Part shown: positions 3,170-51,681 of the stretch, piece after piece | Layout of the letters: the number at the start of each line of letters is the position of its first letter | Position numbering within the stretch: position 1 is the stretch's first letter | Source: Mustelus asterias | Taxonomy: Eukaryota | Length of the DNA: 64,000 nt | Direction: 5' to 3' | Assembly: GCF_964213995.1 (NCBI RefSeq) | Contig: NC_135802.1 | Span: 107,074,001-107,138,000 of the forward strand | Translations under genes and position numbers: made by a program | Notes under the pieces: model-generated | Databases searched by the model: none | What the model was told of the DNA's origin: nothing | What the model saw: the letters and a program-made list of their open reading frames with translations, nothing else

Positions 3170-3332
3170 AAAGTCGGTTTCTATTGGCCAGAGACTGATC
3201 AGCTGGTTATATTTGCTGCTGTCGCTTTGGCGCTCGGCCATCCTGAAACAAACCACCTCGATGACTACTAATAGCTAAACCACATTGTGTACTAATACAT
3301 AACAAATCATATTACTACAGAGTGTGGAGCAA
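3170..3332 (+). promoter_or_regulatory. HoxA6 proximal promoter/5' leader
   Basis: ATTGG (reverse CCAAT) at 3183 followed by E-box CAGCTG at 3200, directly upstream of the ATG. Confidence 0.6.
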
Positions 3333-3762
3333 ATGAGTTCGTATTTTGTGAACCCTACTTTCCCTGTTTCACTGCCCAGTGGCCAGGACTCCTTCCTCGG
3401 ACAGATCCCACTCTATACAACGGGGTATGATGCTCTAAGGCACTTTCCTGCTTCCTATGGGGCAGCGACGCTCCAGGATAAGAGTTACTCGTCACCTTGT
3501 TATTATCAACAATCCAACTCAGTAATAGCTTGCAATCGGGCATCGTATGAGTATGGGGCTTCGTGTTTCTATCCTGAAAAGGATCTAACCAGTGTCTCGC
3601 CATCCGGTAGTGGAAAGCATAGAGCCCAGGATGACTTCTTTTCCTCAGACCAACATTACAAAACAGATTGTGCGCAAAACAAAATTTTAAGTGAAGATGG
3701 AAACGACCGGAAGTACAGTACTCCAATTTATCCTTGGATGCAACGAATGAATTCGAGTTCTA
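3333..3762 (+). CDS. hoxa6: HoxA6 coding exon 1
   Basis: ATG 3333 starts [10 protein letters not shown] (Hox6 N-terminus). Hexapeptide [10 protein letters not shown]. Donor A|GTGAGT at 3762/3763, phase 1. Confidence 0.95.
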
Positions 3763-3956
3763 GTGAGTATTTACAGTAGAAAATGGTAAATTAAACTTGA
3801 CACATAGTTTCAACTTTACGTAAAGAGTGCATGCATATGTTAATTGTTACATTAAATACAGCACACTTACTAGAGTCGGGAAATTGAACAATAGCCTTAA
3901 TTTGACTATATTATATGTCCCAATTTATTTTCCATCTTTTGCTTCCACCAATGCAG

Positions 3957-4216
3957 GTTCTGTATTTGGGCCACATGGGCGTCGTGGGCGACAGACCTAT
4001 ACACGATTTCAAACTCTTGAGTTGGAGAAAGAATTTCACTTTAACAGATATTTAACTAGACGCCGCCGAATAGAGATTGCGAACGCCCTCTGCCTCACAG
4101 AACGTCAGATCAAGATCTGGTTTCAGAATAGGAGAATGAAATGGAAAAAGGAAAACAAACTTCTAAATACAACAGAATCCAACAGCGAAGATGCAGAGGA
4201 TAAAACAGGGGAGTAA
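3957..4216 (+). CDS. hoxa6: HoxA6 coding exon 2 (homeodomain)
   Basis: Acceptor atgcag|GT at 3956/3957. [60 protein letters not shown] is a PG6 homeodomain. Spliced CDS 690 nt = 229 aa. Confidence 0.95.
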
Positions 4217-4750
4217 GAGCGCGAATTTGAAAGAAGTTAGTCTGGGCCTTTCTGTTTGGTAGTGAGTTCTTATGTGCTTATTCTGCCAAACAGGACAGAC
4301 AACAATATTTGCATTTCTTTTTGTTTTCGTTGCCCCTCTCTTTGAGTTTGTGTCAATGTATAAGTGGTAGAGGAAGTGTTCAAATAGGTCTGCATTCCAC
4401 AGGATACTATAACTATACGGTATTTAGGATTAATTGTTTTCCAATTGCGAAGTGTGAATGTTTCTGCTCCTATAGTCGTTACTATGTGATAATTTACTCC
4501 AAAAATAGTATCCCAATTGTTTCAATGGTTAGTTTTAGATATTATTTGACTCTTCAAATAATGAGCGTAGTGGATATCACCATTTGCTATTGATAAATAT
4601 TGTATTGTATGTGTCAATATTTTTACCGTATTAGTTCTTTTTGTTTTGTGTTGTCAAATTGAGAGGCCGTAGTGTTCAGTCAGCTTGTGCCATGTTTTCT
4701 CTACCAAGAGAAACATTTATATTTGCTTTTGACTTGTCAGCTGTAGGATA

Positions 4751-4756
4751 AATAAA
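4751..4756 (+). terminator. Candidate HoxA6 polyadenylation signal
   Basis: AATAAA about 535 nt after the stop codon. Confidence 0.45.
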
Positions 4757-48854: not shown

Positions 48855-48925
48855 CCCAAACTCATAAATCAAAGCCCTTTTATGAATGAGAATGTCATCA
48901 AATGGATCAATCGCAGCAGTACATA
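48855..48925. promoter_or_regulatory. Hox/Pbx/Meis site cluster between HoxA2 and HoxA1
   Basis: TCATAAATCA 48862, TTTTATGA 48878, TGTCA 48893 and GGATCAATCG 48904, all within about 55 bp. Confidence 0.6.
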
Positions 48926-51257
48926 ACAAAAAAAACATCTTACGTATTTGCCTGGATTGGGGAACCCCTGTCAGTTTCTAACTTGTAGGCGTTGGGTCGT
49001 AATTCATTTTCACTGTTACTTATAAAGAGCAGGGCGCTTTCTACTGCTTGCTGCTGGCACTCACTCCACATCTAGACTCACGGTGCAAGGATTTACAACG
49101 ATGTGACTGCTGGCCTGGAGTTGCAATTGTTTCATCATTAAGCAGGGAAATAATGGAAAGGACTTTTATTGCACACTGTATTACTGGTTTTGTGCGAAGG
49201 CCAGTGTCGCTTTCTTTATCAGCCTGCTACTGTATTCTGTGTGTAGAGAAGGCGATATTTCCTTATTAAAAACAAACCGCACGGGCAGATAGTGACACAT
49301 TGTCGATAACTTGTCGCTATTAAACAAGCCTTTACACGACATAATGGTAGCTTACTAGGAGAGGTGTCCTTAGCCCCAAAGCACAATGAGAGAAGCTGGC
49401 CCGGTGCCTCAGAGATACAAGCTTTGAGACCGCACTCGATGACTCATGGCGACGGCGATTGCCCTCAAATGCTGAAAGGCAGCCCTTGGTTTACGGGGTA
49501 CGGGGGGTGAGGGGGGGGGGGGGGTACGGACCTCTCACGGAATATTCGGGTCAGCCGCATCAATTAAAAAAACCTTGCTTCGGCGGGGGGAAGGGGGAGA
49601 AGTATTTTTGCAGGCTGATAACTGAAAACTACAAAAGGCATTTTGTCGTTGTTGAAAGCGATTGAATGCACATTTCTTCAGCAGCCAGTTTCCGCTCCCG
49701 AGACAGTGAAGAAAGATGGCGGAACTGATTGTTACAGTAAAGCTGCTCATTTGTTCTAACTCACCAGCATATGGGAACAGGGGCGACAACAGGAAAGGAT
49801 CATTTCTAATTGCCGCCTAATATATGTCGAAGAACCAATTTCCATGGCATATCGGTAAAGTTACCATTGTGAACAGAAAGGAGAGATTTTTTTAAAATAT
49901 AATCCGCAAAAATCTTTCCTGTTTTTTTTATTTCTTATTGATTTGCAATTCATTTCTGTGCTCGTTTTGTCTGTTTAAGGACAATCACTTGGAATTAAAA
50001 CTGGAGCTTTCCTGAACTTAAGTCCATTGTTCAGAGAGTGTAGTTTTTATATTTTACACATTTTTCGGTGTGAAACATATATTGGGAAATACTTGCTGTG
50101 ACTTGCTCTTTGCGGCAAATTGTTTTTTTTTGCGAATTTCACGATTACTACAGTTAGGTGATTGGTGAAAAGTCACTCAGAAATATTTCACAAATCTTAA
50201 GCGAGCAGTTGCTTTCATTGTAAATTGTCAAATCTCATAAAGGCTAAAGGTACACCGAAATAAACCCAGTGTTCCACGCGTGGCCGCCATTCCACAATGC
50301 TTTCTCTTACAGTAGGGCTAGAATCCACCGTTTGTCATAATTAACTAATCCGAGTAAATTACTGTATCCAACCCTGATCCACGTCACTCTGTAATGTGCA
50401 AAAGATTGATCTCAAATCACCACCAACCCTGAACTGCTCTAAGAGGACTCTACAGGAAGCTGACAGATGGGCGGCAGCGTTTTCCAATCGACCACGTTTG
50501 GTTACATTATGTCTCAGCCAAGGGAGTTATTATTCATATCTGTGTGGAAAAAAAACCCTCTGATTCCCGCTGCAAGCAGAATAAATAGGCAGGCAGCCAA
50601 TATAATATAGAAGACTCTTTGGCTGCCTGTAGCCCTATAGTGAGGGGATGCTCCCGCCAGCCTGTGTTCGATTGAAGGGGCTGCTCATTTCCATGCCAAT
50701 AGCGAGGAAGCTGAGGACAGGCAAAGGCCAGGCCTTGATAGGCTGTTGCATGCTTCCTTGTGACATTATTGCACAGTGAAGGCATGGCGCCTCCTTTTAC
50801 AAGCGCACACCATATCACATACTGCTTAAATACAAATCTTCACATCAGAAACCTCTTCGCCCAATCAATCATCTTGCCCTTTTGTTTTGAGGGTCGCCTT
50901 GAGAGCGATGTTGTACTGGTTGGGGTATAATCAGTTCAGGACATGCACAGGGTATCTTGTGCCTGAAGAAAATCTGAGCTATGCCACAGTTACCTGTATT
51001 GTCTTTAAAGAAAGTGCACAAAGTGGTCTGACACATAACAGATTCCTTTTGCATAGCTTTTCCCCGACAAATAAGTATTACCCAGCTCTGCTGGCGGGGC
51101 GGGGGAGGGGGGGGGGGGGACACGCCGCTCACACACAATACTACCGCAGACATTACACAGGAACATGCATGCCCTTTTCACGGTGGAGTAATGCCATTCC
51201 TATAACTCTTCTCTAATGTTCCGGCTGTTAGGTATTTAATCCAGCGGCTGTTCTTAC

Positions 51258-51525
51258 CTGACAGAGCGGCTGCTGTGCGGGAGGAGACGGGATAAATTCT
51301 CCCCCATTGTGGACGCGCGGTTCGCGGTAACTCTCCTGGCATTTGCAGATCCGAAAGAAAGAGTACGTGCACCTTGAATACATTCCTGCGGCATTCTGCC
51401 GGGCATGCTTTGAAGTGTAATGCATTTGTGGGCGAATAATGCGCGTAACCTTGATGGAAGAGCGTTTGTAATTTAAATGCCACTAAAACACTCATCGATC
51501 ACCAGCAAAAGCATGCAAACTTCGC
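51258..51525 (-). ncRNA. Putative first exon of a HOTAIRM1-like antisense lncRNA
   Basis: The minus strand reads AAGTTTGC...GTGATCGATGAGTGTTTTAGTGGCATTTAAAT, resembling the recalled 5' end of human HOTAIRM1. It is divergent from HoxA1 and has a minus-strand donor CAG|GTAAGA at 51258/51257. Confidence 0.5.
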
Positions 51526-51529
51526 AGGG

Positions 51530-51681
51530 AAGGCGGCGATTGGACGGATTGGATCACGTGGCGACACTTCACTGTATATTGATATCATTTTGTTTCATCC
51601 CCATTGAGGAAGTGGGCAAGTTGGCACGGTCCATCCAGGTTGGTGGACTGTCACTTTATATGCTGGTTACTCCAGTGACAG
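51530..51681 (+). promoter_or_regulatory. HoxA1 promoter/5' leader (probably bidirectional)
   Basis: Two ATTGG boxes (51539, 51548), CACGTG 51555, and TGACAG abutting the ATG. Confidence 0.75.

Follow-up and report, generated by a model that had tools for sequence, protein, structure and literature searches.

A fixed-spacing CCAAT/E-box module, probably an NF-Y/USF promoter element, precedes the group 1-7 Hox genes of the HoxA, HoxB and HoxD clusters of Mustelus asterias

Both enhancer sharing and colinearity presuppose that different Hox promoters respond to common enhancers, yet the promoter element that they would have in common is usually left unnamed. Is there such an element? The question is raised by a 64-kb stretch of Mustelus asterias DNA (hereafter the window; G000:C2:107074001-107138000, + strand, of a 3.68-Gb genome), which belongs to the HoxA cluster and carries Hoxa6 to Hoxa1, all on the + strand. 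A preliminary description of this DNA had proposed that a single module, made of a reverse CCAAT pentamer (ATTGG or ACTGG) followed at about one helical turn by an E-box, stands in front of these six genes and of one gene-less ("orphan") site. Here, we report that the module precedes all 19 group 1-7 genes of the HoxA, HoxB and HoxD clusters, and we propose that it is probably a proximal promoter element, in which NF-Y and a USF-type dimer bind a reverse CCAAT box and, at a distance of 10-12 bp from it, an E-box.

The seven pentamer/E-box pairs of the window proved exact in coordinates, letters and gaps (12, 10, 11, 10, 11, 11 and 11 bp, from Hoxa6 to Hoxa1), and all lie on the + strand. The Hoxa6 module (3183..3205; ATG at 3333) joins ATTGG to CAGCTG, the weakest E-box, over a gap of 12; its Hoxb6 counterpart also has a gap of 12, with CAGATG, and TATATT lies 2 bp after the module in both A6 and B6. 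The Hoxa5 module (6067..6087; ATG at 6245) reads ACTGG, gap 10, CACGTG, with variant and gap identical in B5 and D5, and the orphan module between Hoxa5 and Hoxa4 (9120..9141) reads ACTGG, gap 11, CACGTG. The Hoxa4 module (19203..19223; conserved methionine at 19328) has ATTGG, gap 10 and CACATG, a form found identically in B4 and D4. The Hoxa3 module is double (37864..37900; ATG at 37963): ATTGG, gap 11 and CACGTG at 37880-37885 are followed, after a gap of 10, by CCAAT at 37896-37900. The Hoxa2 module (45533..45554; ATG at 45739) consists of ATTGG, gap 11 and CATGTG, an E-box variant also present in B2 (gap 11) and D2 (gap 10), and the Hoxa1 module (51539..51560; ATG at 51682) consists of ATTGG, gap 11 and CACGTG, identically in B1 and D1. 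The pentamer is thus ATTGG at five of the seven sites. At the six genes, the pentamer starts 99-206 bp, and the E-box ends 77-184 bp, before the ATG.

These seven sites are the only matches (7/7) on the + strand of the window to the loose pattern A[CT]TGG-N10..12-CANNTG, any module within the 138-N run at 28707-28844, between A4 and A3, being invisible to the scan. On the - strand there are two further matches, one sharing the A3 E-box and the other lying in A5 coding sequence. Markov models of orders 1, 2 and 4 predict 1.7-1.9 + strand hits, reach seven or more in 0-1.3% of runs (150 runs each) and place a hit within 250 bp of at most one of the six genes; a shift null yields 1.54 hits, with seven or more in 0.3% of shifts. 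Counted on both strands, the loose pattern occurs nine times in the 64-kb window (1.4 per 10 kb). Arbitrary DNA yields 20 hits over 200 kb (1.0 per 10 kb), and non-Hox homeobox loci yield 59 over 853 kb (0.69 per 10 kb). Since the window count is only modestly above the genome background, it is position, not count, that carries the signal. With USF-type E-boxes only, there are 32 hits in 374 kb of the three clusters versus seven in 1,053 kb of background. Several of the loose-pattern hits in background DNA come from one repeat family.

As the pattern had been fitted to the window sites, the real test is its behaviour elsewhere. We therefore left it unchanged and searched the 400 bp 5' of the ATG in genes outside the window, gene names being assignments made from translations. 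HoxB lies on C11 and HoxD on C14, and Hox-like genes also occur on small contigs. The gene set comprises A13-A9 and A7-A1; B13 and B10-B1; D13-D8 and D5-D1; and scattered HoxC-like genes, a content that fits an elasmobranch. Only group 8-, 10- and 11-like HoxC genes were found, one each on the small, simple-repeat-rich contigs G000:C3112, C1803 and C2989, so that groups 1-7 of HoxC fall outside the counts. A sense module was found in 13/13 of the other group 1-7 genes (A7, B1-B7 and D1-D5), and hence, window genes included, in 19/19, with the pentamer 83-206 bp before the ATG. The background consisted of 47 non-Hox homeobox starts chosen by eye from lists of open reading frames (86 loci were scanned, the 39 without a recognisable start being excluded). 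Only two of these 47 have the pattern, both in inverted orientation, and none has it in sense, ParaHox genes included, although CCAAT occurs in 33 and an E-box in 12 of them (Fisher's test: with hits on either strand counted, 13/13 versus 2/47, 2e-11; with sense hits alone, 2e-13). The composite is thus rare at other homeobox promoters. The sole USF-type hit among the 47 is a clean inverted module 308 bp before the start of an NK-class gene (L059, G000:C11:9788101-9798100).

The proposal that the module serves all Hox genes holds for groups 1-7 and fails beyond them. Among 14 genes of groups 8-13, four have the pattern, inverted at A9, A13 and B13 and in both orientations at D9; group 8 has neither module nor E-box, and group 11 has the E-box alone. 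The module is therefore not needed for Hox transcription as such. Near misses were seen at D10 (gap 9), at B9, where CCAAT persists beside a decayed E-box, and at D13, which retains the E-box, and the C10-like gene, on its small contig, has a gap-9 module 433 bp before the ATG. Two gene-less inverted modules, at G000:C2:107025835 (between A13 and A11) and C11:107378060 (between B13 and B10), are possibly promoters of antisense or distal transcripts.

Outside the window, a histogram of gaps from 0 to 30 bp peaks at 10-11, with 19 + strand hits versus 0-3 at each other gap; the opposite relative orientation gives no peak, and 1.05 Mb of background likewise gives none at these gaps. Between A/B/D paralogues (21 pairs), motif identity is 0.99 versus 0.41 for the inner spacer, the length of which is kept, so that spacing is conserved while letters change. 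Two flanking positions lie outside the search pattern: a T precedes the E-box in 27/35 Hox modules versus 15/78 background hits, and no A precedes the pentamer (C, G or T being found instead) in 35/35 Hox modules versus 32/78 background hits. Both preferences fit USF and NF-Y. The E-box is of USF type (CACGTG or CATGTG/CACATG) in 33/35 Hox modules, and at A3, B3 and D9 a single E-box has CCAAT on either side. The variants track paralogy: ACTGG marks group 5 and the orphans between groups 5 and 4; CATGTG, group 2 and another class of orphans, located between groups 7 and 6; CACATG, group 4; and gap 12 with a non-canonical E-box, group 6. The graded variants may, as earlier proposed, tune paralogue output; what is seen of them is group specificity and conservation across A, B and D, nothing more. 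A shared TATA position was also considered and rejected: TATA-like words lie 2-21 bp after the E-box in 12/19 genes with no common distance, and the module is thus not a full core-promoter grammar. In the A7 and B7 modules and in that of a lost HoxD7 (the D7 relic), a second E-box follows the first by 7 bp.

How would such a module work? We propose that NF-Y and a USF-type basic helix-loop-helix (bHLH)-zipper dimer would bind side by side and cooperatively on one face of the helix, that they would hold the promoter in an open state and direct initiation to a point some tens of bases further downstream, and that enhancers would supply axial position. As the preliminary description had said, NF-Y/USF composites are established both genome-wide and at Hoxb4. 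An E-box-to-CCAAT distance of 10-12 bp has been published for NF-Y with USF1/2 and MAX (Dolfini 2016 PMC4889920), and 2,748 co-bound regions have been reported in human K562 cells (Ronzio 2020 PMC7046753). At HOXB4, the human orthologue of B4, mutation of two promoter sites cuts reporter activity by 60-98% (Giannola 2000 PMC2193192), and the E-boxes of Hoxa3, a5, a7, a9 and a11 aid promoter activity (Akirtava 2022, 10.1101/2022.02.10.479744). In Table 6 of PMC7046753, 18 of the 30 CCAGT-core (ACTGG) sites listed, out of 31, stand at the modal distance and orientation; ACTGG is thus a variant that behaves as a real CCAAT box in human co-bound regions. The same table, searched by position prefix for HOX intervals (chr7 prefixes 2721 and 2724 left out), holds at least ten co-bound summits in them, one on chr7, four on chr17 and five on chr12. 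Eight of these ten have CCAAT at the modal distance. By their hg19 positions, the summits presumably correspond to HOXA3, B2, B4, B6-distal, B7, C13, C12, C9, C6 and one intergenic site; by the gene strands, A3, B2, B4, B6-distal and C6 would be sense and C9 and C12 inverted, as in this genome. The HOXB2 assignment is backed by a mammal-Fugu Hoxb2 block (PMC1414112).

Several observations weigh against this reading. The 47 background starts, a choice made by eye in the open reading frame lists, are not housekeeping promoters, ten of the 14 group 8-13 genes lack the pattern, and the E-boxes of A6 and B6 are non-canonical. In the human data, two of the ten HOX summits have no CCAAT at the modal distance, and the prefix search of Table 6 of PMC7046753 found no summit in the HOXD interval (chr2). 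In the excerpts available of Akirtava 2022, USF1/2 knock-down lowered only Hoxa9 reporters, not those of a3, a5, a7 and a11, and the annotated leaders of Hoxa1, a2, a6, a10 and a13 had neither E-box nor promoter activity; these leaders may begin downstream of the module. Neither promoter activity nor 5' ends were found in the 1 kb before the mouse Hoxd4 ATG (PMC3185001), whereas D4 of this genome has the module. At A3 and B3, an acceptor-like exon begins 17-18 bp before the module and thus includes it. Comparison of the sequences flanking the module across paralogy groups gives no similarity (328 pairs, z -0.08).

The alternatives differ widely in weight. The view that the pattern is a post hoc fit to words frequent in promoters draws on its background rate of 0.7-1.0 per 10 kb and on the 33/47 background promoters with CCAAT; we give it almost no credence in view of the 13/13 out-of-sample genes, found with the pattern unchanged, versus 2/47, unless the annotated promoters of this genome should have the pattern much more often than those 47. 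It is unlikely, on present evidence, that the E-box is read chiefly by bHLH factors other than USF (MITF/TFE, SREBP, MAX, BMAL1 or, at group 6, E proteins) and the pentamer in part by YY1 or TALE/Hox proteins, in which case the fixed spacing would not stem from a single NF-Y/USF complex. The group 6 E-boxes (CAGCTG/CAGATG) would suit such readers, and the group 5 ACTGG overlaps TTTACGAC, which we take to be a Hox/Cdx-like word. The restriction of the USF knock-down effect to Hoxa9 and the binding of several bHLH factors to Hoxa E-boxes (Akirtava 2022), of MITF to the HOXB4 E-box (PMC2193192) and the overlap of NF-Y and YY1 sites at Hoxb4 (PMC3976385) point the same way; however, HOXB4 is activated by USF, not by MITF (PMC2193192). 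Human NF-YB and USF1, moreover, co-bind at positions that presumably belong to HOX genes. Conservation at the RNA level, through structured leaders, an internal ribosome entry site (IRES) or splice signals of long transcripts, is far less probable still. It would account for the acceptor-like AG after a pyrimidine tract at 37845..37846 (+ strand), 17 bp before the A3 pentamer and matched in B3, and for the 5' untranslated region primer of zebrafish hoxb3a splv2 (PMC2148072), which, in the part of that paper available, best matches the A3 module, with three mismatches in 21. From its sequence, the A3 module likely lies within an exon of long transcripts, and the A3/B3 DNA is thus likely both promoter and leader. 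However, the two words and the length of the spacer persist through changes in its letters (0.99 versus 0.41); groups 9 and 13 carry the unit in inverted form, and A3, B3 and D9 carry it doubled as a mirror image, as expected of double-stranded DNA sites. Published tests also found promoters, not IRES (Akirtava 2022; Ivanov 2022 PMC8892498; PMC3185001), so that the earlier argument for promoters over IRES stands as one already in print, with the caveat of the A3 exon.

A more serious alternative concerns the origin of the module. As it recurs in HoxA, HoxB and HoxD, it predates the duplications that made these clusters. That the module was inherited as the cluster grew by tandem duplication, as first proposed, has in our estimate about an even chance. 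That an NF-Y/E-box composite was instead gained by the paralogy groups one by one, ahead of the genome duplications of vertebrates and perhaps with gene conversion, is rather less likely than not. Similarity of spacer and downstream sequence is high within groups (mean z 9.0, 23 pairs) and, as said, nil between them, where z is above 3 for only three of the 328 pairs, among them A7 and the D7 relic; what speaks for descent by tandem duplication is shared orientation and position. Separate gain would also accord with an orientation that differs in groups 9 and 13, with a gap-9 form of group 10 in D10 and the C10-like gene, and with a composite common genome-wide (2,748 human regions; PMC7046753). 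Yet it predicts mixed orientations and positions, whereas the seven groups and both orphan classes are all sense, and none of the 47 other homeobox promoters, ParaHox included, has a sense module. Flank similarity is expected to be lost after more than 500 million years. A broader scenario, in which a single oriented ancestral module was copied with the genes, made group 1-7 promoters interchangeable for shared enhancers, was flipped in groups 9, 12 and 13 and outlived its gene, the orphans being promoters of lost genes as at HoxD7, is tentative and less likely than not.

What are the orphans? The one between groups 5 and 4 has paralogues in HoxB (G000:C11:107435238) and HoxD (C14:57892701), with a within-group z of 12.7, which lie 9.9 kb (B) and 5.6 kb (D) upstream of mir-10. 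At gathering score, Rfam finds no mir-10 in the window; HoxA has no such hit, and HoxB and HoxD have one each. The same scan places mir-196 between A10 and A9. Downstream of the HoxA orphan lies a putative first-exon region, predicted to be non-coding (9142..9362, + strand), in which a GT at 9357 resembles a splice donor. Such donor-like sites occur 237 (A), 253 (B) and 235 (D) bp after the start of the orphan module, with another at +33 in A. In zebrafish, hoxb3a splv2 starts 3' of hoxb5a and hosts miR-10c (PMC2148072). We propose that long, spliced Hox4/Hox3 transcripts, the host of miR-10 in B and D, likely have the 5-4 orphan as their distal promoter. The 7-6 orphan class (ATTGG, gap 11, CATGTG) is present in all three clusters (G000:C2:107071923, C11:107423600 and C14:57883260), its HoxA copy 2.1 kb before the window, and the mouse Hoxa5 D2 promoter sits at the corresponding position (PMC2868907). 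A further gene-less module, at G000:C14:57880590 (L027), has a leader 71% identical over 96 bp to that of A7, and tblastn at an E value of 1 found no coding remains of HoxD7 or D6; this site is the retained promoter region of the lost HoxD7.

A few other features of the window deserve mention. CACGTG occurs at 24383, in a block conserved with HoxB, and at 30432, in one conserved with HoxB and HoxD, with no CCAAT at 10-12 bp; both lie between A4 and A3 and may be additional distal elements. An Rfam match to HOTAIRM1_2 (116 bits, 48839-49057) lies on the - strand, opposite to the A1 module and 2.5 kb upstream of it. Short matches to non-paralogous places of HoxB and HoxD (39377-39491, 56876-56952, 60942-61012 and 63649-63762) are probably dispersed repeats.

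Standing 5' of every group 1-7 gene, this module of 21-23 bp offers a direct handle on promoter function, gene by gene. It can also serve as a rule to locate genuine Hox start sites and distal promoters that have escaped notice, a matter of relevance to the IRES dispute and the long Hox3/Hox4/miR-10 transcripts, and as a searchable marker for the age of Hox promoter architecture.

By comparison with known systems, we deal with new members of a known promoter element, in a cluster-wide pattern that is apparently unreported. Already known are the composite itself, its HOXB4 instance, NF-Y/USF-1 at HOXB7, the Hoxa E-boxes and the promoter nature of these leaders. The full-text literature searched holds, among the matches listed, neither a cluster-wide group 1-7 rule of spacing and orientation nor the group 9/13 inversion or the distal and gene-less modules, part of which subscription papers, figures or supplements may hold; nor do the available passages of PMC11802806, PMC10735318 and PMC2080641 state the cluster-wide rule. 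Reportedly, work by Zhu in 2005 extended NF-Y to the group 4 paralogues. The distal promoters Hoxa5 D2 (PMC2868907), Hoxd4 P2 (PMC3185001) and hoxb3a splv2 (PMC2148072) match the 7-6 and 5-4 orphans, a correspondence of position and not of alignment to the mouse sequences, and term searches of PMC2868907 and PMC3185001 returned no CCAAT element. The published Hoxa E-box promoters (Akirtava 2022; Ivanov 2022 PMC8892498) concern HoxA only and, in the available text, come without a spacing or orientation rule, a CAAT box being noted beside the Hoxa9 E-box only; no E-box is reported there for the a1, a2, a6 and a13 leaders, unlike this genome, which has the module upstream of all four genes. The NF-Y/USF1-2 composite (PMC4889920, PMC7046753) has the same two words at the same spacing and in the same relative orientation, CCAAT following the E-box when both are read on a single strand; it is known genome-wide in human cell lines and in LTR12, and the available text does not tie it to Hox clusters as a class, although Table 6 of PMC7046753 includes HOX positions. 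Its single-gene instances are HXRE-1/HXRE-2 of HOXB4 in group 4 (Giannola 2000 PMC2193192; Zhu 2003; Gilthorpe 2002) and NF-Y/USF-1 at HOXB7 in group 7 (Meccia 2003). That work addressed single genes, whereas in this genome the module stands before 19/19 group 1-7 genes, at two distal orphan classes and in the leader of a dead gene.

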